Shown here: in pieces, positions 1,998-63,704 of the stretch
Layout: the number at the start of each line of letters is the position of its first letter
Numbering within the stretch: the stretch's first letter is position 1
NCBI GenBank assembly: GCA_041738755.1
Contig: JBGSPE010000002.1
Coordinates: 13,290 to 77,289 of the forward strand
Direction of reading: 5' to 3'
DNA: 64,000 bases
Source: Minisyncoccia bacterium
Lineage (GTDB): Bacteria; Patescibacteriota; Minisyncoccia; Phycocordibacterales; UBA918
Notes under the pieces: model-generated
The model's input: the letters and a program-made list of their open reading frames with translations, nothing else
Databases searched by the model: none
Told to the model about the DNA's origin: nothing
Program-made: the position numbers and the translations under genes

Positions 1998-2369
1998 TTG
2001 TTTTTTGGTATACTTACATCTATGACACCACAAAAGTTTCTAGCAGAGCTTAAAGCCTTTGATAAAGTGAAGTACTCAATCGTAAAGCAATTACGTGACA
2101 TCATTTTAACAGTCAATCAATCAGCTTCAGAAGAAGTAAAGTATGGAGGATTGCATTATTTGGCCAGCAAGCCGTACACAGGTCTGTTTGTTAGCAAAAA
2201 TCATGTCTCGATGGAATTTAGTGAAGGGGCACAGTTCACTGATCCTAAAGGATTATTACAAGGAAAAGGCAAAGGTAGACGGCATCTAAAATTTACCTCC
2301 ACAGAGGATATTGAAGAAAAAGATATAAAAATGTTTTTAAAACAAGCAATGAAAATTGCTAAACAATAA
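1998..2369 (+). CDS. Hypothetical protein, possibly DUF1801/YdhG-like
   Basis: 123-aa ORF, weak family resemblance only. The start may be the internal Met at 2022. Confidence 0.35.
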   Translation: MFFGILTSMTPQKFLAELKAFDKVKYSIVKQLRDIILTVNQSASEEVKYGGLHYLASKPYTGLFVSKNHVSMEFSEGAQFTDPKGLLQGKGKGRRHLKFTSTEDIEEKDIKMFLKQAMKIAKQ

Positions 2370-2465
2370 CTCACCACAAATCCACTACCTTCAAGAAATT
2401 TGGACACTCCATTTCAATCAGACTTTGTTTAACTTCTAGCAAACTGCTCCACTTTATATAATATT

Positions 2466-2484
2466 AGCGCCATTAGGCGCTTTT
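2466..2484 (+). terminator. Intrinsic terminator-like hairpin
   Basis: AGCGCC-ATTA-GGCGCT followed by TTTT. Confidence 0.4.
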
Positions 2485-2525
2485 ATTATTTAAGTGGAGA
2501 TGGAGAAAGCAAACTGCTTTACTTA

Positions 2526-2978
2526 TTACTGTTGTGGGAATTTTGATATATCCATAAAGCCTGGCTCAAGGACATACCCTTCGGTATCTTCCACCTCAAA
2601 GCTATACATGAAATCTCCTCCCACTTCTTGATTAAACTTATTTTCATACACTCTTCCTCCTGCACGTTTAGCATTCGCGCAAAATTCATCGACAGCTTCT
2701 TTAGAAGCTAAGTTTAACGCATAAAAAGCACTGACAGTCTCCTTCTGATTTGGAAAGGATTTGTTGTCACTAAAGTTACGTGCGAACTCTTCCGTGAGGA
2801 GCATAAAGATAATCTCTTCACTCCACATCATGGAGGTGGCAACGTCGTTACTAAACATTGGATTTTTGGTACAACCAATTGCTTCGTAAAAGGCAGTAGC
2901 TTTAGCTAAGTCTTTAACAATCAAATTTATGTAGACTGATTTTTTTGTTTGCATGTAATCAAATGTACCACATATCAA
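2526..2978 (-). CDS. VOC/glyoxalase-bleomycin resistance family protein
   Basis: 150 aa with a beta-alpha-beta-beta-beta VOC-like pattern (YINLIVKDLAKATAFYEAIG...). Flanked by 25-bp direct repeats. Confidence 0.55.
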   Translation of the reverse strand: MICGTFDYMQTKKSVYINLIVKDLAKATAFYEAIGCTKNPMFSNDVATSMMWSEEIIFMLLTEEFARNFSDNKSFPNQKETVSAFYALNLASKEAVDEFCANAKRAGGRVYENKFNQEVGGDFMYSFEVEDTEGYVLEPGFMDISKFPQQ

Positions 2979-3097
2979 AAATCTTCAAGAAATTTGAGTA
3001 CTCCATTACCCTCAAAGGGTGTAACGTATAGAAAACTGCTCTCCATATTCTCTATAGAAATAGAGGGATGAACATACTTTACCTTTTGTTTCTTTAC

Positions 3098-27265: not shown

Positions 27266-27634
27266 CGATATGTTACTTAAAGGTGGGACCGTATCACCTA
27301 GGTTATGGTGACGTGTCCCCTAATAAATCCAGCAACTACGTTAGTAGTGCTTTGAACGGATAGCCAGTGCCATCTCGTCTTGCGGCCAACAATACCAGAA
27401 TTACCTAAAATAGCAAGGAAATATAAGGACGCGCATACGGTGAGTCTCTCTCTATAAAGTGGTATGTACATCGTACTGACTTACCGTTTGGTAGAAACGC
27501 AAAATAAGATTGTATTGTAACGCTACAAAACTTGACAAAGGTAAATTAAAATGCTAAAAAATCCGCAGCTTTGCGGGAATTCGCCCGCTCCGCTCTTTGA
27601 CAACTCGTGATAACCAAAACTGAGAGGTCAGAAT

Positions 27635-27886
27635 GTGAATGCCTGTGACGAAAAAACAGCAACCGTCACCCATGTAATCCCAGGAAACGACCCTTTTGCT
27701 GTCGCTAAGAGTCCGATATTACCTGATCAGGTAACGTTCTCGCTTGGCACACAACGAAGGGTTTGGAACGAAAGTGATTATCCTACAGTGGGTGCAGAAG
27801 TCGTATTAAGCGACATCAGAAAGGTCAAGGGAAAGTGGCGGGCGTATCATGCCCGTTTTCTGAGACCAGAAGACGAAAAGGAATAA
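27635..27886 (+). CDS. Hypothetical small protein (83 aa), the first gene of the GC-rich island
   Basis: ORF with a GAGAGG RBS. Predicted beta-rich. No confident family. Confidence 0.35.
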   Translation: MNACDEKTATVTHVIPGNDPFAVAKSPILPDQVTFSLGTQRRVWNESDYPTVGAEVVLSDIRKVKGKWRAYHARFLRPEDEKE

Positions 27887-27892
27887 AGGACC

Positions 27893-28543
27893 ATGTCAAA
27901 AAAAGGAAGGCTCATGGGAGCTCTTGAAGGTCTCGGTCTGGTGGAATCCGAAGGTGGCGAAACGCAACCTGAAGCAACCGCGACCCCTGTACCTTCACCC
28001 CAAACCAGTTCGCCGCCTTCTACCATAACAGCTACGGCTGTTTCTGGAGCTGACCCGGCAATGGTGACGAAAATCCGCGCAGCGGTTACCAATGCCGGAC
28101 ACTCGCCTCGCCTCGCCAGTTTTCTGGCTCAACTCGAGATCGCCCGCCAAGCCTTCCCGAACGATGAAAAAACTGCAGTAGCTGCAGCACTCGCATTTTC
28201 GAAGCTGTCTGCGGCCGAGATTCGTGAGGAGTTGTCAAAGTCTGCTGCAGCTGCACTCGTCGAAGCGGAGCAAAGCATCCGCAATGATATTCGCAATAAA
28301 CGCGAAAATGCTTCTGGAGAACTCGAGAAAAAGTCATTGCAGCTGCAGGCCGAAGTGACTAGTCTCGAAGAGCAGCTCGCGTCAATCTCGCAGAAGCTCG
28401 CAGCTGCCAAAGCTGGACTCGCTGGCATCACCAGTGAACGTTTGGCGACCGATACTGGCATTAATGAAATGGAAGCGAAGGCAATGTCCAGCCATGCGGT
28501 GGTCAAAGCCGAACTCGACAAAATCAACACCCTGCTGCCATAA
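27893..28543 (+). CDS. Hypothetical coiled-coil protein with a Pro/Thr/Ser-rich N-terminal linker
   Basis: 216 aa, high GC, Ala/Glu/Leu-rich heptad-like C-terminal half. Confidence 0.4.
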   Translation: MSKKGRLMGALEGLGLVESEGGETQPEATATPVPSPQTSSPPSTITATAVSGADPAMVTKIRAAVTNAGHSPRLASFLAQLEIARQAFPNDEKTAVAAALAFSKLSAAEIREELSKSAAAALVEAEQSIRNDIRNKRENASGELEKKSLQLQAEVTSLEEQLASISQKLAAAKAGLAGITSERLATDTGINEMEAKAMSSHAVVKAELDKINTLLP

Positions 28544-28576
28544 TTTTACGCAGCCCAGTAGAAAAGGAACTAAGCA

Positions 28577-29605
28577 ATGGCTGGATCTTCCAACCAAATG
28601 AATGATTTCTTCGACCAACTGCCGACTCCCCCCAGGGAGAAGGTGGTGCGCGGCGTCTGGTATGCCGGAGTGAGCGTCGCTGGCCTGGCCGGCTTCCTCA
28701 CCGTCATGCCCTACGTAAACCAAGCGCTTTCGCTTGGTCTCGAAGGTGCAACTCTCTTCGTGAAGCTGGGTGCCGTCGGTGTCATTGGTGCCGCCGGTGC
28801 TTACACTGCTATGTCCTTCTGGACCCCGTTCAAACGGAAGGTCGAGAGCATGGCACGCAACACTACCATCGCTATCTTCGGCGAAGATCCGATTACGCCA
28901 CTCCATATGTGGCTGGCGGAAGTTCGCGAAGACCTCGATGGGGTCCTCACCTCTGCTCGTGAAATCGGCGGTCTTATTGCCGAAAACGATAAGACGGTCG
29001 AAGACAACCTGCACTTCCTTTCGGAAGCCGACAAACGCGTCGCGGCCGCAACCAAGCGCCACGGCGAAAACAGCATCCAGACCCGAACCGCTTCGATCGA
29101 AGCCAAAGGTTTCAAGGACCGTGCAGACAACGCGAATCGTATCAACCATCCGCTTAAGGCGACCTATGTCACACTGAGCCAGGTAGGCGATGCAATCAAG
29201 ATGACCGAACGGCAAGCCGAAACCGACATCGAGACTGCGACCCTCGAATGGCGTGCAGCGCTGGCAGCTGAAAAAGCTATCGGCAAGGCACAACGTTCGC
29301 TCGGTAAGCGGAGTCAGCGCTACGTCGAGGCCACTATGGCCTTCGACATCATCCGTCAGAAGTACGCCGGCACATTCGGTCAATTGCGCGCGCTGCGTCA
29401 ACAGACTGAAGAGACCATCAGTAGGATGGACCTTAACGACGCTGTTGCTCACGAAGAAGCTCTCGAGCGACTTCGCGAAAACAGCCAAAAACTGCTCGGC
29501 TTCCAACCGACACTTCCGGCGCCCGACTTCACTACCAATCAAGGGACGCCTGTCCTCATTGAGGGTCGGTCGGTCAACGAACTCAAGCTTTTTGACGATA
29601 AGTAA
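28577..29605 (+). CDS. Hypothetical membrane protein: 2 N-terminal TM helices and a ~250-aa coiled-coil/helical domain
   Basis: 342 aa. Hydrophobic segments (GVWYAGVSVAGLAGFLTVM, LFVKLGAVGVIGAAGAYTAMSFW) followed by a long helical region. Confidence 0.45.
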   Translation: MAGSSNQMNDFFDQLPTPPREKVVRGVWYAGVSVAGLAGFLTVMPYVNQALSLGLEGATLFVKLGAVGVIGAAGAYTAMSFWTPFKRKVESMARNTTIAIFGEDPITPLHMWLAEVREDLDGVLTSAREIGGLIAENDKTVEDNLHFLSEADKRVAAATKRHGENSIQTRTASIEAKGFKDRADNANRINHPLKATYVTLSQVGDAIKMTERQAETDIETATLEWRAALAAEKAIGKAQRSLGKRSQRYVEATMAFDIIRQKYAGTFGQLRALRQQTEETISRMDLNDAVAHEEALERLRENSQKLLGFQPTLPAPDFTTNQGTPVLIEGRSVNELKLFDDK

Positions 29606-29668
29606 TCAAGTCGTTACGTAAGAGCTAATAACACCAAACCAGTACCTGAGAAGAAAAGGAATCAAGAA

Positions 29669-31216
29669 ATGGCATACAATATCTCAAGCAAGGGCAAAAT
29701 CGCTCTCGCGGGACTCGCAGGCCTCTTCGTTGTCGGTGCCTATGGACTCTGGTCCGCAGTGCCCGACAACTGGAAATCTGCGGCAAGTAGCGTGGTCGCA
29801 CCCGGTGGTGACACTATTGCGATCGAAAGCAGCGAAGAAGCAATCGATGTCTGCGTCGTCACCTGGGGTGGCTACGCCGGCGGACAGTACTTCAACCGCG
29901 GCTTCAAGCCGAGCGATGCCTCGCTGTACAAGCAGCGCTACAACCTGACGGTGAACTTCCACGTCATCGACGACTTCAACGCGTCGCGTGAAGCGTACAA
30001 GGCCGGCGATTGTGACCTTCTCTGGGCCACGATCGACGCCTTCACGACCGAAGCAGCTACCTTGCAGAAGGCTGGATTCAACCCCAAATTTCTGTTCCAA
30101 GCTGACTGGTCGCGCGGCGGTGACGCCATCGTGGCCGGTCCGGGCATCAAATCGATGTCCGATCTGCGCGGCAAGCGCGTGGCAGTAGCGTTCGGGACTC
30201 CATCCCATACGTTCCTGCTGCGGATGCTCGAGGCAGCTGGTATGACAACCAGCGACCTCACCATCATCGACACAGGTAATGCCATCGACGCCGCCAAGGC
30301 GTTCCAGACTGGCAACGCTGAAGCGGCCGTCGTCTGGTCTCCAGACGATACCGCCAGTGTCAATGCTGTGCCGGGAAGCACGGTGATGATCAGCACGCGT
30401 GAAGCGTCGCACATCATCGCTGATGGCTTCATCGCCGAAGCAAACTACATTGAATCTCACCGAGAAGAGCTGAGAGCCCTCATCGAGGGCTGGATGATCG
30501 GCGCGGGTGATATCAACTCGAATGCGGCGGCCAAGACGGAAGCCTCGAATATTCTCGCTACTGGGCTCAACATCCCGGCAGCAGATGCTCTGGCAGCAAT
30601 CAATAACGTCCGTCTCACGACGCTCGGCGACAACCGCCAGTTCTTCGGACTGGAAAGTGGCGCCACCATGACTGGTGAACGCCTCTTCACGGCAAGCGCC
30701 CGTCTGTACCAGCAGAACGGATACACGTCACTGGTTCCGGAAATTCCGGCCTGGCGCAGCATCACGGACATCAGTCTGCTGAGCGGCGTCAACCTGAATA
30801 CTCCGAACCAAGCTGCCGAAGGTCGCACGAGCTTTGCTCAAGCTGACACTTCGGCCGCAAGTGCACAGGCAATCGCCTCTCGGGGTCTGTCGGTGCAGTT
30901 CGCGACCGGATCGGCTACGCTGAGCGATGAAGCAAAGGCGGTGATCATGCGTGAATTCGTGCAAGGCACTGGTGATTCGTTCGCCGGCGCCCGAGTGCGT
31001 ATTGAAGGGAATACGGACAACACCGGTTCCCGCACCACGAACGTAACTCTGTCACAGCGTCGTGCTGAGGCAGTGGCCAACTTCCTGGTGACCCTCGGCT
31101 TCGATCGCAATCGCTTCGTCGTCGTTGGCAATGGTCCGGACAAACCCGTCTGCAACTCGCAGGACGCAGCCTGTATGGCACAAAATCGCCGCACAGACTT
31201 TGAGCTGATTCGGTAA
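29669..31216 (+). CDS. ABC-transporter substrate-binding protein (NMT1/SsuA/TauA-like) fused to a C-terminal OmpA/MotB-like peptidoglycan-binding domain
   Basis: N-terminal TM anchor. Central periplasmic-binding fold (KRVAVAFGTPSHTFLLRMLEAAG ... AVVWSPD). C-terminal OmpA_C-like segment (VRIEGNTDNTGSRTTNVTLSQRRAEAVANFL ... NRRTDFELI). Confidence 0.6.
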   Translation: MAYNISSKGKIALAGLAGLFVVGAYGLWSAVPDNWKSAASSVVAPGGDTIAIESSEEAIDVCVVTWGGYAGGQYFNRGFKPSDASLYKQRYNLTVNFHVIDDFNASREAYKAGDCDLLWATIDAFTTEAATLQKAGFNPKFLFQADWSRGGDAIVAGPGIKSMSDLRGKRVAVAFGTPSHTFLLRMLEAAGMTTSDLTIIDTGNAIDAAKAFQTGNAEAAVVWSPDDTASVNAVPGSTVMISTREASHIIADGFIAEANYIESHREELRALIEGWMIGAGDINSNAAAKTEASNILATGLNIPAADALAAINNVRLTTLGDNRQFFGLESGATMTGERLFTASARLYQQNGYTSLVPEIPAWRSITDISLLSGVNLNTPNQAAEGRTSFAQADTSAASAQAIASRGLSVQFATGSATLSDEAKAVIMREFVQGTGDSFAGARVRIEGNTDNTGSRTTNVTLSQRRAEAVANFLVTLGFDRNRFVVVGNGPDKPVCNSQDAACMAQNRRTDFELIR

Positions 31217-31402
31217 TCACGAGTACCAGTACCTAGTGGGTTGGGACCTAGATCCCAACCCACTACCTTCCTCCAAGGGTATGTGAACAATCACATTATC
31301 CTTGGAGGCATCTCTCACTTTGCAATAGTTTGTTGATTGAGAGCTGCCAAATTATCGAGGGAGCATGTACCTTAAGAATTAAAGAAAGAAAAGGAGAACA
31401 TC

Positions 31403-32209
31403 ATGCGTAAGCTTACGAACAATCTGTTCGAGCTACGCGGAGAAATCACCACTCAACAGAAAACCATCCTTGGTATCCTTGGAGTAGTTGTCTGGTTCTT
31501 GAGCTGGTGGCTCATCTCTGCACAAGCGTGGCTTCCGCCACAGGTTGCACCAGGACCATTTGCGGTCTTGGGTGCCATCCCCGAGTTGCACTTTGAGCAT
31601 GCTCTGGTGCGAAACGTCTGGTACACCTTGCAGATGAACCTGCATGGCACAATGAACGCAATTTTGTTCAGCCTGCCAATCGGTTTACTGCTCGGCCTAA
31701 CACCGTTCCTTCGTGGCATGGCGACGCCGTTTTATGTCGGTTTGAGGTTTATTCCTCTCCCAGTCATCATCGGTCTGTTCATGCTCTGGGCCGGTATCGG
31801 TTATTCGATGAAAACATGGTTCCTCACCTTCGCCATCATCGTTTACCTGATCCCGACAGTAATCCAGCGCGTCGATGAGACGCCAAATATCTATGTCAAC
31901 ACAGCACGAACGCTGGGGGCAAATAGATGGCAAATCATCTGGAATGTCTATATCCCTGACGTGTTCTCACGCGTCTGGGACGACATTGTTATCTTGGTGG
32001 CTATTTCCTGGACGTACATCAGTATCGTCGAGGTAGTCAATAAGAGCGACGGTGGCATCGGCGCACTCATCTATATGGCACAACGGCAAAGCAGTCCTGA
32101 GAAGTACTATGCACTGCTTCTCATCCTCATGCTGGTGGCCTATCTGCAGACGCTCGCGTTCAAGCAGATCGGTCAGTGGCTATTCCCCCACAAGCGAATT
32201 GGGAGGTAA
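31403..32209 (+). CDS. ABC transporter permease (NitT/TauT family)
   Basis: Six TM helices. EAA-like loop region ([20 protein letters not shown]). Confidence 0.7.
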
Positions 32210-32211
32210 TC

Positions 32212-33024
32212 ATGGTTAACGGAGTAACCTTCGTCGACACAGCACTTCCGAACATCGTAGAGTTCAGGGGTGTGACACAACAGTATGGTGAGAAGACAGT
32301 GCTCAACGAGCTCGATCTTCTCATTGAAGACAAACCTAATCAGGGTCAGTTTGCTGTGATTCTCGGCATCTCTGGTTCAGGTAAATCGACTCTGTTTCGG
32401 TACCTTAACGGACTGAGCAGTCCGACCAGTGGTGAAGTCCTCATCAAGGATCAGCCGATTGGTCAGTTCGGTGCTGTCAGTACAGTGTTTCAAGACTACT
32501 CGTCTCTACCTTGGTTTTCGGTGCTGCGAAATGTTGAGCTTCCGCTCAAAATTCGTGGCGTCCCGAGAAAAGAACGACGTGAACGGGCACTCGAGATGAT
32601 AGAAAAAGTTGGTCTCAAGGGGCACGAGAAAAAATACGCTCGTGCGCCAGAGCTTTCTGGCGGACAATTGCAACGCGTTGCAATTGCCCGTAGCCTGATT
32701 GCAAATCCAGAACTTATCCTTATGGACGAACCGTTCGGTGCGCTTGATGGCATTACGCGTTACGAAATGCAAATGCTCCTCAGTAAGTTGTGGAGGGATC
32801 TGCAGTCAACGGTCCTGTTTGTCACGCACGATCTGCAGGAAGCTGTGCTGCTTGGGGATGATATCTATATCCTTGACCCGCGTATCGGAAAAATCGGCAG
32901 GCACATCCCTGTGAATCTCGGTCTTGACCGAGACATCACAATCAAAAGAGACCCACGCTTCATGCAACTGGTCCTCGAGGTCGAAGAAGCACTTATGGCA
33001 ACAAGCATACCACTTCAACCATAA
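32212..33024 (+). CDS. ABC transporter ATP-binding protein (NitT/TauT family)
   Basis: Walker [10 protein letters not shown], signature LSGGQLQRV, Walker [13 protein letters not shown], and an H-loop. Confidence 0.8.
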
Positions 33025-33123
33025 CAGTTCTTCGATGCACCTTTTGGGGCGGGCTCTTTGAGTCCGCCCCTTTATCGAAAATTTTTGCTTTCAAACATCA
33101 TTGGATAACGAAAAGGATCCATT

Positions 33124-33981
33124 ATGCAACTATCAATTGAACTCGCTGACCTCGAAGCAATGATCCCCGATCACCGTGGCAATACGCTCTTTGAAAGAGC
33201 GTTAGCAACAGGTACAACGGGAGAGGATCTGATTAACCTCATCGCCAACTATATTCAATTCAATTCAAGTTTCGGCAGCGGCGTTGCAAACCTCGCAGGA
33301 GAAATTGGTTCTCAACCGGATCTTTTCCAAGATATGGCTGAGCCCTTGAAGATATTTGCCGATCGAAGCGTAGAGGTTGCCAGCCGCATCTTATTTGCCG
33401 CCGTTGATGAATTCAACGACAGCGGTACTGAACATCTTGATACGCACCGCACCCTCGCACAAGCCGCGCTGAAAGGTATCGGACAGTTCTTCGGCTACAC
33501 ACCGTCACAGCTGAATGACATCATCTCAATCAACTCGGTTACGACCGAAGCGATTGAGCAAGTACGTCTCGGTTATGCTATCAGCCAAAACGTAACTGAG
33601 GAAGTCCTCTTCCGTGCGCTGGGATTCCATATGGGATCTGAGATTCTGGCCGATGAAGAGTTTCGACTGATTGATGAACTTCTCAAGCAGGAGCATCCGG
33701 AGCTGGTCAGCCATCTCGAACGGACCCACGTCGAAATCAACGGATATCCTCACTCAACATACTATTGGATTCGCATCCATACCACGGTTGAAGCAGATCA
33801 TTTTGCATCTGCTTCAACTGGGGTCAATCTTGCACTTCAATACTATGCGGGCAAGCATCAGCTCGAAGAGGTCAGGAAATGGGTCCTCGAAGGTTTCGCT
33901 ACCTTTGCATCAATTCAATCGATGTTCATGCAAGGTCTGCTGAATTCTCAACTGGTGAGCGATGTCGCTACCAACAACTAA
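33124..33981 (+). CDS. Hypothetical helical protein, possibly heme-oxygenase-like (TenA/PqqC/CADD-type) fold
   Basis: 285 aa. Spaced E/H/D motifs (EEVLFRALGFHMGSE, HTTVEADHF) resemble HO-like di-metal or TenA-like proteins. Sits next to a NitT/TauT transporter, as TenA does with ThiXYZ. Weak assignment. Confidence 0.3.
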   Translation: MQLSIELADLEAMIPDHRGNTLFERALATGTTGEDLINLIANYIQFNSSFGSGVANLAGEIGSQPDLFQDMAEPLKIFADRSVEVASRILFAAVDEFNDSGTEHLDTHRTLAQAALKGIGQFFGYTPSQLNDIISINSVTTEAIEQVRLGYAISQNVTEEVLFRALGFHMGSEILADEEFRLIDELLKQEHPELVSHLERTHVEINGYPHSTYYWIRIHTTVEADHFASASTGVNLALQYYAGKHQLEEVRKWVLEGFATFASIQSMFMQGLLNSQLVSDVATNN

Positions 33982-34104
33982 TCAATGATCTTTTGAAACT
34001 ACAAGGCGGGGCTCAATGAGCTCCGCCTTTCTTCTATTTGACGGAAAAACAGTTCCCTGTATATTGGTGCTAAACCTGGTCTTTGACTACCATAGGAGGA
34101 AAAA

Positions 34105-34665
34105 TTGGAAACACGTAATCTGCGTAAAATCGCCACCGGCCTGAAAATGATTTCTGGTGCATTGGTGATGGGAGCCTTACTCTTGGAGTCCATCAAGAAG
34201 GACGTTGCCCCTCCATCACCACAGAAACAATCAGGGAGCATCCAGAGTCAAATGGTGATTGTGGGGATTCGTCTCCTTGAACTTCAGCGGACTGAAGGTC
34301 AATCTCTGCAGGATTTCATGGAGATTCGATACAGTGCTTTGTACTTACTCGGTCGAGCCGGCCATTCACTGACCGAGCAGGAACTGGATGAGCACGCAAA
34401 TGCGTTTGCCCACTTCCATCAGCAACGCTACCAGCTTTTTGGACAGGACGTCGACCGAACACTCTCAGAATGGTATCAAACATCTGGAGAGAGTCGTCAG
34501 ATTCCCCTGCAGACCTTGCTACAGAAATGCGAATTAACGAACCATACACTTGACATGTCGGGCTATGTTTCATTCTGTCTCACCGGCACAGATTTTGACG
34601 GGAGGAAACAAGACATTGGCACAGAAGAGTGGGAGCAGATCAAATATCGCTTCAACATTCAGTAA
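34105..34665 (+). CDS. Hypothetical protein
   Basis: 186-aa ORF with a possible N-terminal signal/TM segment (MISGALVMGALLL). Confidence 0.35.
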   Translation: METRNLRKIATGLKMISGALVMGALLLESIKKDVAPPSPQKQSGSIQSQMVIVGIRLLELQRTEGQSLQDFMEIRYSALYLLGRAGHSLTEQELDEHANAFAHFHQQRYQLFGQDVDRTLSEWYQTSGESRQIPLQTLLQKCELTNHTLDMSGYVSFCLTGTDFDGRKQDIGTEEWEQIKYRFNIQ

Positions 34666-34870
34666 CATATTGGCTTGCTCGTGCTCTGCATGAGCAAGCC
34701 AAGAGTTACGTAATCCCAACACCTTACGTATCGACTGAAAACCCATAAGACTCGCTAGTTTTATGGGTTTTATTATTTGCCATTTATTGTATAAACCGAT
34801 GGAGAACACTATTATAAAAATTACCCCGCCAATGAAGAAGTTGTTACTTCTTCATTGGTGGGGTAAAAGG

Positions 34871-35389
34871 TCATCCTCGATACTCTGAGGATATGCTTCG
34901 CTGCATGAGCCACGTCTCCCTATGAAACACAAATTGCCCAGGCAAAAGTTGCTCGACTTTGGTACAGAGATTTGAACCCTGGCGTGTGACATCAATCACA
35001 AAACAATCACCTTCAGTACCGACAAAAACACTGTAATGCCCTGGATTGAGCAGTTTTGGCTGTTTAAGGAGTACTTCAAGTAACAGCTGTTCTGAAAGAC
35101 TAGTGAGACCCTTCTTTTGGTAGTGACTCCGAACTGATTCACGCGGAATTCTCTGCTCACGACTCACTTCATCATGAGCCAAAACAATCTCCCGAGTTGG
35201 ATCAAGCCTGTCAGTCGAACGTTTTTCCAAAATTGCTTGCGTAGCAATCCCGTAGGTAACACCAGAGCGAGGACTGGTTACCAAAAGTTCGTGCTTTGAA
35301 AGCGATGTTGAAACCTTCGACAGATCTACCAAGGTCGGTCCAGGCCAGTGGCGACCGAGCGGAACCACAATGCTCATAAGAATCTCCAA
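34871..35389 (-). CDS. Hypothetical protein
   Basis: 172-aa ORF with its own TTGACA-17-TATGGT promoter on the minus strand at about 35405-35433. Confidence 0.4.
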   Translation of the reverse strand: MEILMSIVVPLGRHWPGPTLVDLSKVSTSLSKHELLVTSPRSGVTYGIATQAILEKRSTDRLDPTREIVLAHDEVSREQRIPRESVRSHYQKKGLTSLSEQLLLEVLLKQPKLLNPGHYSVFVGTEGDCFVIDVTRQGSNLCTKVEQLLPGQFVFHRETWLMQRSISSEYRG

Positions 35390-35445
35390 ATAACGAAATC
35401 GGTCTAAACCATACTACTTATTAAGATAATTGTCAAAATTACACA

Positions 35446-35475
35446 AAACCACCTCACGGAGTGAGGTGGTTTTTG
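35446..35475. terminator. Terminator downstream of rplE
   Basis: AAAACCACCTCAC-GGA-GTGAGGTGGTTTTT. Confidence 0.7.
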
Positions 35476-35493
35476 TATTACTTAGAGAGAAAC

Positions 35494-60760: not shown

Positions 60761-61173
60761 AGATTAGACAATAATATTCAGTATATCATGCGAAAAATGA
60801 CGTAATCTTCACAAATCTAAAGAGTTAGTTTGTAGTAACAAACATTACTCAAAAACGATGTAGAGCCCTAATTTGACAAAATTATAATAGTATAGTGTAT
60901 ATACAAATTACATAAGTGTATATTTGACACTAAGTAACTAGTTTGCTATCTTTGGTGAAGATACGTTATCCGCCGTGCAACCAGCACGGCATCAATCACA
61001 GTTTAGTTAGTGTAATTTATACATTTACTAATCATCGGTGTGGGGTGGCGCGTTCGGGGTACCTACCTGGAGCGCTCCACCCCACTCGGAACTGTGGGGT
61101 CTGTTCTTTGACAGAGTACATGTACCCATGTGCACCATACAACCATATTGTCTTAACCTTAAGGAGCCTCTCT

Positions 61174-62004
61174 ATGAACATTCACCTTCTCATCATTGAT
61201 CCGCAAAACGACTTCATGGATATTCCCGGTGCTGCCTTGCCCGTGGCGGGAGCCAATGACGACATGAAGCGACTAGCTTCGTTCGTCGATCGGGTCGGAC
61301 TCAAACTGCAGAAAATCCACGTCACGCTCGACAGTCACCAAGTGGTCGATATCGCCCACCCCGCGTTCTGGCGGGATCAGGCCGGTAATCAACCTGATCC
61401 GATGACCATCATCTCGGCAGCGGCTATCGCCGACGGAACCTGGACGCCACGGTTGCCGCAATTTCGTGACCGGGCGCTCACCTACGCAAAAACGCTCGAA
61501 GCCAGTGGCAAGTACCAGATCATGGTATGGCCGCCACACTGTCTGATCGGCTCGCCCGGATACGGCGTCCAAGAAGACCTACTCGCTGCTCTCAATCGGT
61601 GGTGCGCGACCCGTGTCCGCAACATCGACTTCGTTGCCAAGGGTACCAACGTGTTCACCGAACACTACGGTGCCCTGCAAGCTGAAGTTCCGGATCCAAA
61701 CGATCCTTCGAGCCAGCTCAACGGCCGCTTCCTCAAGATGCTGCAAGACGCAGATATCATTGTGGTCGCCGGCGAAGCATCGAGCCACTGCGTGAAGGCC
61801 ACGGTCGAGCAAGTCGCTGAATACATCGGCGAGGAGCACATCAAGAAATTCTACCTACTGACCGACTGTATGTCGCCAGTTGGTGCAATTATTGATGATA
61901 CCGGCACCGTGGTGGTCGACTTCCCTGGTATTGCCGATCAGTTTTTGGCTGATATGCAAGCTCGGGGCATGACACTGACGACGTCGGATGCCTTCCTGGC
62001 CTAA
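61174..62004 (+). CDS. Isochorismatase-family (cysteine hydrolase) protein
   Basis: RBS AAGGAG. HLLIIDPQNDF N-terminal motif of the isochorismatase/nicotinamidase fold. GC-rich. The longer upstream frame is probably an over-extension. Confidence 0.6.
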   Translation: MNIHLLIIDPQNDFMDIPGAALPVAGANDDMKRLASFVDRVGLKLQKIHVTLDSHQVVDIAHPAFWRDQAGNQPDPMTIISAAAIADGTWTPRLPQFRDRALTYAKTLEASGKYQIMVWPPHCLIGSPGYGVQEDLLAALNRWCATRVRNIDFVAKGTNVFTEHYGALQAEVPDPNDPSSQLNGRFLKMLQDADIIVVAGEASSHCVKATVEQVAEYIGEEHIKKFYLLTDCMSPVGAIIDDTGTVVVDFPGIADQFLADMQARGMTLTTSDAFLA

Positions 62005-62065
62005 TTGCTCAATCAATATGGGCGGAAGCATTGCTTCCGCCCATAATAACCAAAAGGAATTCTCT

Positions 62066-62809
62066 ATGACTCAACAAGACGACTTTGAGTTCGGTAGCGG
62101 CTTCGGATTTACCGGGGCCACCATCGAACAACTCGGCGCAACCGAGTACACGCTGGTAACCATCGTACTTGATGAAAGCGGATCAATTGGCGGATTCGAA
62201 TCTCAAATCAAGGACATGCTCGATACTATCGTGGCCGCGTGCAAACGCTCGCCGCGAGCGAGCAACCTGCTCTTGCGGGTGACGAGCTTCAGCTCGTCGT
62301 ATCGCACAAGCAACGGTATCAATCAACTCCATGGCTTTTTGCCACTTGGTGACATCGATACTACCGCCTATGCAGGACTGCGGGGATCGGGCGGTACGCC
62401 GCTCAACGATGCGTTCTATGATGCGGTGGGGGCAGTCAATGTCTACGGCAAAAGCCTGAATGACATGGACTTCCTCGTCAACGGCATCACGTTTGTCGTC
62501 ACCGACGGTGAAGAAAATCAATCGACGACCACGAAGACGATGGTGAAGCAAGAACTGAAGCGAGCGGCGACGGAAGAAATTCTCGAATCGCACCTCGCTA
62601 TCCTGATTGGCATTGATACTGGCTTCTCGGCGAAGACTGCGCTCGCAGACTACCAACAAGAAGTCGCCATCAACCAATTCATCTACGCCGGCGACGCCAC
62701 GCCAAGTAAGTTGGCCAAGCTGGCTCAGTTTGTCTCGCAGTCGATTTCTTCGACGTCGCAAGCACTGGGTACCGGTGGACCGAGTCAAACTATCTCGGCC
62801 ACCATCTGA
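62066..62809 (+). CDS. von Willebrand factor A domain protein (TerY-like)
   Basis: MIDAS motif LVTIVLDESGSIG, with downstream T and D positions. 248 aa. RBS AAAAGGA. Confidence 0.6.
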   Translation: MTQQDDFEFGSGFGFTGATIEQLGATEYTLVTIVLDESGSIGGFESQIKDMLDTIVAACKRSPRASNLLLRVTSFSSSYRTSNGINQLHGFLPLGDIDTTAYAGLRGSGGTPLNDAFYDAVGAVNVYGKSLNDMDFLVNGITFVVTDGEENQSTTTKTMVKQELKRAATEEILESHLAILIGIDTGFSAKTALADYQQEVAINQFIYAGDATPSKLAKLAQFVSQSISSTSQALGTGGPSQTISATI

Positions 62810-62864
62810 TTACTCACCAAGGGGGAGACACTACGTGTCTCCCCCTTTCTCTTGGAGAATACCT

Positions 62865-63704
62865 ATGACTATTGTTTCTGATCACGCCTTTCACATCGGC
62901 GAACAACACCTGCGACAAGGAACACCTTCACAGGACTACACCGCTACCGGTACTCGGTCGGAGAATGCAGCATTTGCTACCCTCTCCGACGGCTGCTCGT
63001 CTGGAGGCGCAACTGATATCGGTGCCCGATTACTGGTACTCGCAACCAGACGAGCCTTGTCCGAAGCAAGCACTCTCAACCCAACCTTGATTAATCGCGA
63101 ACGCGATTTATATCTCGAAACCTATAGGCGAACACTTGAGTTAGCCCCGAGCGATATGCTCGCCACGTCACTCTGGGCAACGCTCGATAGCGACACACTC
63201 ACCGTGAACGTGACGGGTGATGGGGTGTTTGCACTCATCTTTGCAGATGACACTCCGGTGCACTTCTATGAAGTGAGCTGGGACAAAAACACTCCCTACT
63301 ATCCGGCCTATCGTCTCTCGGGTCTCAATGAACAATTCAAACAACTACACGACAGCCCTACACCACTTACCGTGATAAGAGGTCAGGTCGATAATCCGAT
63401 ATATACCGAAGACACTTATTACATCGAACCAGGGCTACAAGGACTTACGTTTACCTTCGCTCGGGTAGGCGAAATGTTCCCGACACCAATTATTGGCGTA
63501 GCGTTGTTCTCAGACGGGGTTACGCAAGTTGACGGATATACGACCGCTGAAGTTGTTGGTGAACTTACCCACTTCAAAAGCACTTCTGGGCAATTCTTCA
63601 CTCGTCGCCTCAACCGTTTTTTGCAAGACGCCAGAAAACGTGGGCGCGGTCCACTTGATGATATTGCTGGAGCGGTGCTCTATGACGAAAGGAATGAATT
63701 ATGA
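62865..63704 (+). CDS. PP2C-family-like protein phosphatase
   Basis: About 280 aa between a vWA gene and a kinase gene. Acidic metal-binding-like motifs (LSDGCSSGG, VTGDGVF, FSDGV). Overlaps the kinase start by 4 nt. Confidence 0.45.
   Translation: MTIVSDHAFHIGEQHLRQGTPSQDYTATGTRSENAAFATLSDGCSSGGATDIGARLLVLATRRALSEASTLNPTLINRERDLYLETYRRTLELAPSDMLATSLWATLDSDTLTVNVTGDGVFALIFADDTPVHFYEVSWDKNTPYYPAYRLSGLNEQFKQLHDSPTPLTVIRGQVDNPIYTEDTYYIEPGLQGLTFTFARVGEMFPTPIIGVALFSDGVTQVDGYTTAEVVGELTHFKSTSGQFFTRRLNRFLQDARKRGRGPLDDIAGAVLYDERNEL

Follow-up and report, generated by a model that had tools for sequence, protein, structure and literature searches.

What system is encoded by three adjacent genes of no recognised family that sit inside a ribosomal-protein operon in a member of the Patescibacteria? 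The question arises from a stretch of 64,000 nucleotides of a Minisyncoccia bacterium (contig JBGSPE010000002.1, positions 13,290 to 77,289), which we call the window. An initial annotation of the window had singled out three co-oriented, tightly spaced open reading frames (ORFs) as a three-gene module and as a candidate for a genuinely undescribed system. The three ORFs, here called P1, P2 and P3, are where it placed them, with gaps of 6 nt (P1-P2) and 33 nt (P2-P3):

27635-27886, plus strand: P1, GTG start, an 83-aa cytoplasmic protein of no known family
27893-28543, plus strand: P2, a 216-aa soluble coiled-coil partner (AlphaFold2, AF2, model with pLDDT 80)
28577-29605, plus strand: P3, 342 aa, read here as a PspA/IM30-like protein with a two-helix membrane hairpin anchor

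We argue that the locus is one envelope-module operon, in which a PspA-like membrane protein (P3) and its partner (P2) are encoded together with an importer. Taken as a whole, this is an answer that we believe somewhat more than we doubt. The annotation-level claims about the locus we make with good confidence, and the mechanism of the module is offered as a possibility that falls short of probable. All three ORFs are real genes: they are conserved in related genomes, and P2 and P3 are preceded by the same AAAAGGA motif. The earlier view that the proteins could not be placed in any known family has stood, since searches of P1, P2 and P3 against Pfam, NCBIfam, PHROGs and PADLOC place none of them (PADLOC returns nothing for P1 or P3, and for P2 it gives only weak matches to coiled coils), and neither Pfam nor NCBIfam holds a model for the P2-P3 dyad. 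The guess that these were membrane-stress or scaffold proteins was on target, P3 being a distant relative of PspA/IM30. Its further comparison with TelA (PF05816) and XpaC (PF10112) fails, with no match of P2 or P3 at E<=1 and none among 55 relatives.

The membrane protein P3 and its relation to PspA

P3 can be divided into four parts, each with its own conserved features:

28604-28642, plus strand: N-terminal cytoplasmic motif DFFDQLPTPPREK, invariant in the clade alignment
28655-28822, plus strand: transmembrane (TM) hairpin, TM1 aa 27-47 and TM2 aa 60-82, Kyte-Doolittle windows >1.4
28880-29305, plus strand: PspA-like core, with the motif GEDPITPLHMWL (nt 28880-28915) and a helical hairpin (aa 107-243)
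29339-29599, plus strand: conserved C-terminal region, AFDIIRQKYAGTFGQLRALR (nt 29339-29398) and the terminal LKLFDD (nt 29582-29599)

The two N-terminal TM helices and the long helical region described at the outset are thus both present, with about 260 aa of long helices after the hairpin. Because K/R residues flank the hydrophobic segments at both ends, P3 is predicted to be N-in/C-in. The TM helices also appear in the AF2 model, which has further helices at aa 107-162 and 167-243. The mean pLDDT of that model is 60, with values of about 72-95 at aa 111-220 falling to about 57-64 by aa 221-240. The columns of the C-terminal motifs are invariant or nearly so in the clade alignment, and the structure there is predicted with low confidence. 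A profile search of 1.84 billion representatives returned 204 relatives, nearly all of 310-360 aa and aligned end to end. They share one layout: a conserved N-terminal peptide, a TM hairpin, a DPI[G/T] motif and long helices. The N-terminal peptide varies between clades, with DFFDQLPTPP in the window and FWxKPEGKTG or WxPPEAK at the same position in others. When the window clade is aligned by hhalign with the large Bacteroidota/phage subgroup, the match runs over the full length (Prob 99.4%, E 3e-21).

We read P3 as a distant PspA/IM30-like protein of the ESCRT-III superfamily, with a TM hairpin in place of helix alpha0, on the basis of fold matches, the PF04012 matches of its relatives and a profile-profile alignment. 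Foldseek, given the AF2 model of P3, returned Vipp1/PspA structures as all of its top 11 matches (prob 1.0, TM-score 0.58 normalised to target). For P2 the suggested check by structure prediction gave no fold match. PF04012 is the sole Pfam family that P3 relatives match recurrently (4 of 55 and 7 of 29, sub-threshold), and in the three relatives whose matches are listed individually the match starts at profile position 23, directly behind the TM hairpin. In hhalign the P3 family aligns with six annotated PspA/IM30 sequences at Prob 87% (E 4e-6, 129 columns), pairing P3 aa 103-233 with E. coli PspA 23-151. The GEDPITPL of the GEDPITPLHMWL motif, invariant in the clade, pairs with EDPQKL of PspA, where helix alpha1 opens with 'EDP'; most P3-family proteins have DPI[GT]. 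The negative control, P2 against PspA, gave Prob 1%. The six reference sequences came from the E. coli chromosome and plasmids, a number limited by the plasmid collection, which holds mostly near-identical enterobacterial PspA; against one single genuine PspA the P3 family reached no overall significance. One P3 relative carries the JGI label 'phage shock protein A'. Snf7 (PF03357) had no match at E<=0.01 among the 55 and 29 family members or the window P3. Judged by the parts of an ESCRT-III fold, P3 has the helical hairpin alpha1-alpha2/3, and where the N-terminal amphipathic helix alpha0 would stand it has a conserved peptide and two TM helices. P3 is not filed as a member of PF04012 because it falls below the Pfam threshold.

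The genes found beside P3 relatives bear on the same question. Downstream of the dyad in locus L039 (9502-11627) come genes for a Band_7_1+SHOCT protein and a zinc-ribbon protein, a set that we take to recall B. subtilis pspA-ydjGHI, and in L013 (6382-7266) a TPM-domain protein precedes the dyad. Band-7, SHOCT and TPM are all among the PspA-neighbourhood partners reported by Ravi et al. 2024 (PMC11237479).

The partner, the importer and the operon

The second protein of the dyad begins with a short motif of its own:

27911-27946, plus strand: P2 N-terminal amphipathic motif LMGALEGLGLVE

P2 has the Pro/Thr/Ser linker that had been attributed to it. Its AF2 model shows a short N-terminal helix, a disordered P/T/S linker (aa 15-50), a small helical bundle (aa 55-103) and a long helix of about 108 residues (aa 107-214). 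P2-type proteins share this plan: a short amphipathic motif at the N-terminus, acidic residues after it, then a linker of low complexity, a small helical bundle and the long helix. The idea that P2 is a cryptic PspA or a P3 paralogue was tried and rejected (hhalign Prob 1-8%, no consistent Pfam family, no fold match). What ties the two proteins together is position. Of 160 additional loci, 138 have a P2 homologue or positional equivalent directly upstream of P3, without exception in the same orientation, and P2 is upstream in 69 of the 76 genome loci with enough upstream sequence. P2 is nearly an obligate upstream partner of P3. P1 is directly upstream of P2 in the nine related Patescibacteria loci (L001-L009, 48-77% identity by tblastn); its profile finds nothing in distant or viral loci, so it is confined to the Patescibacteria clade, and it has no match in PDB sequences. 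The evolutionary core is therefore the P2-P3 dyad and not the triad, P1 being clade-specific. The three genes of the initial annotation are co-conserved within the clade, and beyond it only the dyad persists.

The genes that follow P3 on the plus strand extend the module considerably:

29669-31216, plus strand: substrate-binding protein (SBP), 515 aa, Pfam NMT1 43.7 bits (cutoff 20.5)
29699-29761, plus strand: N-terminal membrane anchor of the binding protein
aa ~64-298 of the binding protein: NMT1/SsuA/TauA-type domain, NCBIfam SsuA, TauA and urea-type partial matches
aa 411-507 of the binding protein: C-terminal OmpA-like peptidoglycan-binding domain, PF00691 56.8 bits (cutoff 27.2)
31007-31066 (aa 447-466), plus strand: OmpA-domain motif GNTDNTGSRTTNVTLSQRRA (GNTDNTG...LSQRRA), TD...LS..RA pattern present
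31403-32209, plus strand: ATP-binding cassette (ABC) permease, BPD_transp_1 with EAA-type loop, Pfam 44.2 bits (cutoff 26.4), NCBIfam TauC and SaoP partial matches
32176-33024, plus strand: ABC ATPase, TauB/SsuB type, Pfam ABC_tran 96.4 bits (above its cutoff)
33124-33981, plus strand: 285-aa accessory protein of no family, predicted to be in the same transcription unit
34003-34029, plus strand: terminator-like hairpin directly after the 285-aa gene, 12-bp stem with 8 G-C pairs, T-rich tail

Judged by their sequences, these genes encode a complete NitT/TauT-class binding-protein-dependent importer whose binding protein would be tethered both at the membrane and at the wall. The ATPase motifs are intact (Walker A GISGSGKST, signature LSGGQ, Walker B LILMDEP). 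Its start is probably the ATG at 32212 instead of the listed GTG at 32176; the ATG follows a GGGAGG motif and lies 2 nt past the permease stop, and homologues are 267-271 aa long. The PDB sequences nearest to the binding protein are SsuA (2x26), TauA (6ssy) and an OmpA-like protein (5wtp). It scores far below every NCBIfam equivalog cutoff (78 against 334 bits for TIGR03427, for example), and sulfonate-like and thiamine-pyrimidine-like compounds are our lead guesses for the solute. The 285-aa protein has no Pfam or PDB match. Its gene lies next to the cassette in three loci, on the downstream side in L005 and on the upstream side in L007 and L009, and the protein may be haem-oxygenase-like. 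As a TenA/haem-oxygenase (HO)-like enzyme it found no statistical support, with hhalign Prob 3% against a TenA/HO-like cluster. By eye, its acidic/His motifs (DEF...THR, GSEILADEEF, HTTVEADH) pair with TenA/haem-oxygenase-like ligand motifs.

We believe that P1 through the 285-aa gene form one predicted operon closed by the hairpin. This rests on the same gene order in relatives (P1-P2-P3-SBP/OmpA-permease-ATPase, then in the window the 285-aa gene), a shared ribosome-binding motif, small gaps and the sole strong hairpin at the end. The motif AAAAGGA stands 5' of P2, P3 and three of the downstream genes, and the plus strand holds no comparable hairpin from P1 through the 285-aa gene. A promoter scan found 7 sites where 6.7 were expected. 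As annotated by NCBI, P2 (209 aa) and P3 (335 aa) begin at an internal Met8. We regard the longer forms as more likely, because it is the upstream ATGs that carry AAAAGGA and because the extra residues are conserved in some relatives.

Distribution, mobility and phage carriage

Where did the cassette come from? In the window it interrupts a minus-strand ribosomal-protein operon between the S14 and L5 genes; the genes for S14, S8, L6, L18, S5, L15 and SecY flank it at one end, those for L5, L24, L14 and others at the other end. By the cluster names of its ribosomal proteins, the host belongs to the Patescibacteria, near Paceibacterota. Its guanine-plus-cytosine (GC) content is 53.9%, against 45.4% in the flanks and the rest of the window, so the three genes do head a compositionally distinct island, as had been proposed. 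The whole island spans 27266-35493 and holds the cassette, the 285-aa gene, a 186-aa ORF (34105-34665) and a minus-strand 172-aa ORF (34871-35389). Other GC outliers in the window, at 0.52-0.55 in 50001-52000 and 61001-63000 and at 0.34-0.36 in 2001-3000 and 47001-48000, against a background of about 0.45, may be additional islands.

The close relatives of P3 fall into 13 clusters. Contexts were recovered for nine loci, which represent six distinct cassette copies in at least five different chromosomal contexts. P1-P2-P3-SBP/OmpA-permease-ATPase is found in that order in every one of the nine, and the conserved unit is therefore larger than the three-gene module first proposed, since it includes the importer with its OmpA-tethered binding protein in all Patescibacteria loci examined. 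Across these loci P2 is 38-60% and P3 48-64% identical. The sites of the cassette include one adjoining an rve integrase (L001), one after dnaK-dnaJ and, in L005, the same S14|L5 site as in the window. Between L005 and the window the ribosomal proteins and SecY are 82-86% identical, P1, the ATPase and the 285-aa protein are intermediate (77%, 78% and 72%), and P2, P3 and the binding protein are only 38%, 51% and 55% identical. This divergence suggests either fast evolution or replacement of the cassette at a fixed site. L005 has two additional genes (613 and 105 aa) and a version of the 186-aa ORF that is 39% identical. The GC content of the cassette exceeds that of its flanks by 6-8.5 points in six of seven Patescibacteria loci. 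We think that the island was probably acquired horizontally.

It would be a mistake to regard P3 as a very rare family. Word-indexed searches, which found 13 and 10 close clusters, misled us on this point until an exhaustive profile search and motif scans corrected it. The first genome scan with the P3 clade alignment was empty, the viral scan likewise, and a word-indexed search repeated with a broad P3 alignment added one protein, P0140. A single subgroup defined by its N-terminal motif has at least 557 relatives on metagenome contigs and occurs in at least 474 species-representative genomes, mostly Bacteroidota (Saprospiraceae, Chitinophagales, Cytophagales, Flavobacteriaceae). The carriers include the cultured Tenacibaculum caenipelagi, T. 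xiamenense and Xanthocytophaga flavus, as well as Leptospiraceae and Fibrobacter. In bacterial chromosomes the neighbours of the dyad are ordinary housekeeping genes such as topA, lpxB, yidC and CTP synthase. Paralogous dyads exist, since some Bacteroidota genomes have the P3-family gene twice: two copies (L119 and L174) lie about 180 kb apart on the Haliscomenobacter contig NZ_CBDDBS010000003.1, and one metagenome-assembled genome likewise has two (L130 and L164).

The importer often accompanies the dyad outside the Patescibacteria as well. Downstream of the dyad in the 160 further loci we count the binding protein 59 times, the ATPase 49 times and the permease 46 times. Among loci with enough downstream sequence, the full importer is encoded after the dyad in 20 of 36 from metagenomes and 17 of 62 from genomes; 35 of the 62 bacterial-genome dyads have no transporter. 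Cultured species of Tenacibaculum and Aquimarina carry the full cassette. The transporter proteins of the window share 45-59% identity with their counterparts in Tenacibaculum, Aquimarina and Saprospiraceae; in the same comparison P3 is almost past detection by BLAST and P2 is past it. A same-strand gene after the transporter in 13 cassettes encodes a protein matching PF14518 Haem_oxygenas_2 (E 3.5e-26) and TENA/THI-4 PF03070 (E 2.7e-17). Two cassettes have a cobalamin riboswitch aptamer (91.6 bits) some 5.5 kb upstream, on the opposite strand (L041 4264-4476, L133 2273-2485); it is probably unrelated to the cassette.

Distant P3 relatives with the full cassette also occur on IMG/VR contigs of 27, 41, 89, 306 and 578 kb, and further carriers are phage-like contigs of 43 and 177 kb. 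Matches to 80 PHROG families occur among 93 ORFs that flank the viral cassettes; the families include many HNH/homing endonucleases, ribonucleotide reductase (RNR), polymerase, tRNA-His guanylyltransferase, RNA 2'-phosphotransferase and endolysin. The 10-kb flanks contain no capsid or terminase gene, and the contigs are therefore called viral on the strength of IMG/VR and of their gene content. A tblastn search of annotated GenBank phages gave no match. One phage-like contig encodes, directly after the cassette, a 342-aa protein (L014 13420-14448) with Lig_chan-Glu_bd, SBP_bac_3 and Ion_trans_2 domains; by these it resembles a glutamate-gated K+ channel of the GluR0 kind, here in what may be a phage genome. 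On the 89-kb viral contig two extra genes stand between P3 and the binding protein (L023 11057-12593), one for a 128-aa membrane protein and the other for a 376-aa Ppx/GppA-family phosphatase with a signal peptide.

Mechanism, competing explanations and known systems

PspA, Vipp1 and the ESCRT-III proteins are universal membrane-repair and membrane-remodelling polymers. To our knowledge, all well-studied bacterial members bind the membrane peripherally through alpha0 and are controlled by partner proteins or ATPases. P3 is predicted to sit in the cytoplasmic membrane by its N-terminal hairpin and to expose its PspA-like alpha1-alpha3 hairpin to the cytoplasm. In the mechanism that we tentatively propose, P3, probably with P2, could assemble into an ESCRT-III-like polymer that stays attached to the membrane permanently and stabilises or reshapes it. 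The peripheral membrane contact missing from P3 might come, in trans, from the amphipathic N-terminus of P2. In loci with an attached importer, the polymer may support or regulate the wall-tethered uptake complex. The varied chromosomal sites, the Bacteroidota copies and the large phages suggest that the module moves between genomes, and a phage-borne copy could keep the host membrane energised, intact and importing during long infections.

A bolder version can be imagined, and we consider it rather improbable. In it the P2-P3 dyad would be a large, unrecognised, membrane-integral branch of ESCRT-III that operates without an AAA+ ATPase and forms one machine with the importer, a machine that huge phages have captured. 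The ABC ATPase might then drive polymer turnover in place of Vps4, or else the polymer might gate or cluster the importer where membrane and peptidoglycan are clamped together. If this were true, huge phages would use the machine to control the envelope and the nutrient intake of their hosts.

Several results weigh against the reading of the locus as a PspA-like protein with its partner and importer. The Foldseek E-values are marginal, about 1e-3, and were obtained with a model of mean pLDDT 60. The best PF04012 relative, P0060 (30.2 bits, E 4.3e-7), does not reach the gathering cutoff of 33.9, and the window P3 has no Pfam match at E<=1, PF04012 included. A hidden Markov model search of PDB sequences with P3 returned only coiled-coil noise, and the Bacteroidota subgroup of P3 taken alone aligns with PspA at only Prob 44%. 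The 160-locus census contains no AAA+ cluster, which leaves the module without a Vps4-like disassembly ATPase. The transporter is missing from about half of the dyads or more, so any coupling to transport must be optional. Viral cassettes also show a GC excess, a weaker one that protein composition may explain in part, and for this reason we have downgraded the GC excess as proof of transfer.

Could P2 and P3 instead be lineage-specific coiled-coil scaffold or regulatory subunits of the importer, positioning or gating the wall-tethered transporter for example, with their likeness to PspA a convergence of helical hairpins? That the window P3 matches no family, that PDB sequence searches give generic coiled coils only and that P2 has no detectable relative of known function would all fit. 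We nevertheless find this unlikely. Four independent methods align P3 with PspA in the same register on the EDP motif while the P2 control fails to align, PF04012 is the only family matched repeatedly, and the Band-7, SHOCT and TPM neighbours are partners of the PspA type. The 35 of 62 genome dyads that lack a transporter also mean that P2 and P3 cannot be mere transporter subunits. Another explanation centres on the solute. Patescibacteria depend on salvage, and the operon might salvage a vitamin precursor in the manner of ThiXYZ-TenA, importing thiamine pyrimidine (HMP/FAMP) for a 285-aa TenA/HO-like enzyme, with P1-P3 as accessories. The binding domain is of the NMT1/THI5 family, a TenA/HO-like gene follows the transporter in the 13 cassettes mentioned above, and the E/H motifs of the 285-aa protein resemble those of the TenA-like cluster by eye. 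However, control by a thiamine pyrophosphate (TPP) riboswitch was looked for and rejected, with none in the cassette of the window and none in nine others that carry the TenA-like gene. The 285-aa protein has no Pfam match and no support from hhalign (the Prob 3% already given), the closest solved binding proteins are SsuA and TauA and not ThiY, and a TenA-like gene is found in only 13 of about 59 transporter-bearing loci. We think it a poor candidate on this evidence.

The phages raise a different alternative, that the module originated in phages and serves phage-host conflict (superinfection exclusion, lysis timing or a holin-like function), the bacterial copies being domesticated remnants. 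The IMG/VR contigs of up to 578 kb with phage-type flanking genes are what one would expect, and so is the faster evolution of P2 and P3 relative to housekeeping genes (38-51% against 82-86% between the window and L005). The TM hairpin of P3 also has a PHROG holin match, though a weak one that is not significant (E 0.061). We regard this as very unlikely. The dyad stands among ordinary chromosomal genes in at least 474 species genomes, the annotated GenBank phages have no match, PADLOC is blank for P1 and P3 with weak coiled-coil matches for P2, and a complete importer with intact motifs points to solute uptake.

We conclude that P3 stands for a large, unnamed, TM-anchored branch of PspA-like proteins with a nearly obligate partner, often coupled to an OmpA-tethered importer in a variation on an operon theme that has already been noted. 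In the P3 family the effector appears hard-wired into the membrane and paired with a coiled-coil partner. Hundreds of bacterial species have it, as do phage genomes reaching 578 kb. The frequent operon with a peptidoglycan-tethered importer offers a concrete, testable case of the proposed link between membrane remodelling and solute transport, and the full cassette in cultured Tenacibaculum and Aquimarina opens the question to genetics. For Patescibacteria, with tiny genomes and a dependence on salvage, an acquired module for uptake and membrane maintenance would bear on nutrient supply. For huge phages the module would be an unusual auxiliary function.

How new is this? We found no experimental work on the P2-P3 family in the literature. 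Popp et al. 2022 mention ABC transporters only beside PspC, and a 2025 review of bacterial and archaeal ESCRT-III describes no TM, ABC-linked, Bacteroidota or Patescibacteria variants and brings in phage only as a trigger of Psp. The system is nonetheless not wholly undescribed, as the initial annotation had hoped, because Ravi et al. 2024 noted a related operon theme in another arrangement and with an AAA+ ATPase. Their example, from Ca. Handelsmanbacteria (OGG56892.1), runs PspA -> PBPB+OmpA -> TM(s) -> ABC-ATPase -> TM+Snf7 -> AAA+, and they suggest a tie between membrane remodelling and solute transport (PMC11237479). Both operons combine an OmpA-fused binding protein, an ABC permease and an ATPase with a membrane-anchored ESCRT-III-like protein. 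The operon of Ravi et al. has a classical two-domain AAA+ protein, whereas the window cassette and the called genes of related loci have no AAA+ gene. In the window the PspA-like gene and its partner stand upstream of the transporter and are not split around it, the binding domain is of the NMT1/SsuA type and not PBPB, and P2 is not detectably PspA-like. P3 is set beside their 'divergent membrane-anchored Snf7' by description only.

The comparison with PspA, IM30 (Vipp1) and LiaH is closest in the cytoplasmic alpha1-alpha3 hairpin, which in P3 opens with (E)DP and aligns in one register; the PspA-like part of P3, about 240 aa, is also similar in length. P3 relatives also resemble PspA in their Band-7, SHOCT and TPM neighbour genes. 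P3 differs in having a TM hairpin and a conserved N-terminal peptide instead of alpha0, in a similarity that stays below the Pfam threshold, in its own invariant motifs C-terminal to the hairpin (AFDIIRQKYAG, LxLFD) and in a partner that is not PspB, PspC, PspF or LiaI. In the PspA-YdjGHI and LiaIH systems of B. subtilis, PspA-type effectors are brought to the membrane by dedicated membrane proteins. The dyad of L039, followed by YdjI-like Band_7_1+SHOCT and YdjG-like zinc-ribbon proteins, is similar to these, but the anchor of P3 is built into the effector and the window has no homologue of LiaI, YdjG or YdjI. The importer, finally, resembles SsuABC, TauABC and ThiXYZ in the fold family of its binding protein, its EAA-loop permease and its TauB/SsuB-like ATPase. 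It departs from them in that the binding protein of the window is membrane-anchored and fused to an OmpA-like wall-binding domain.

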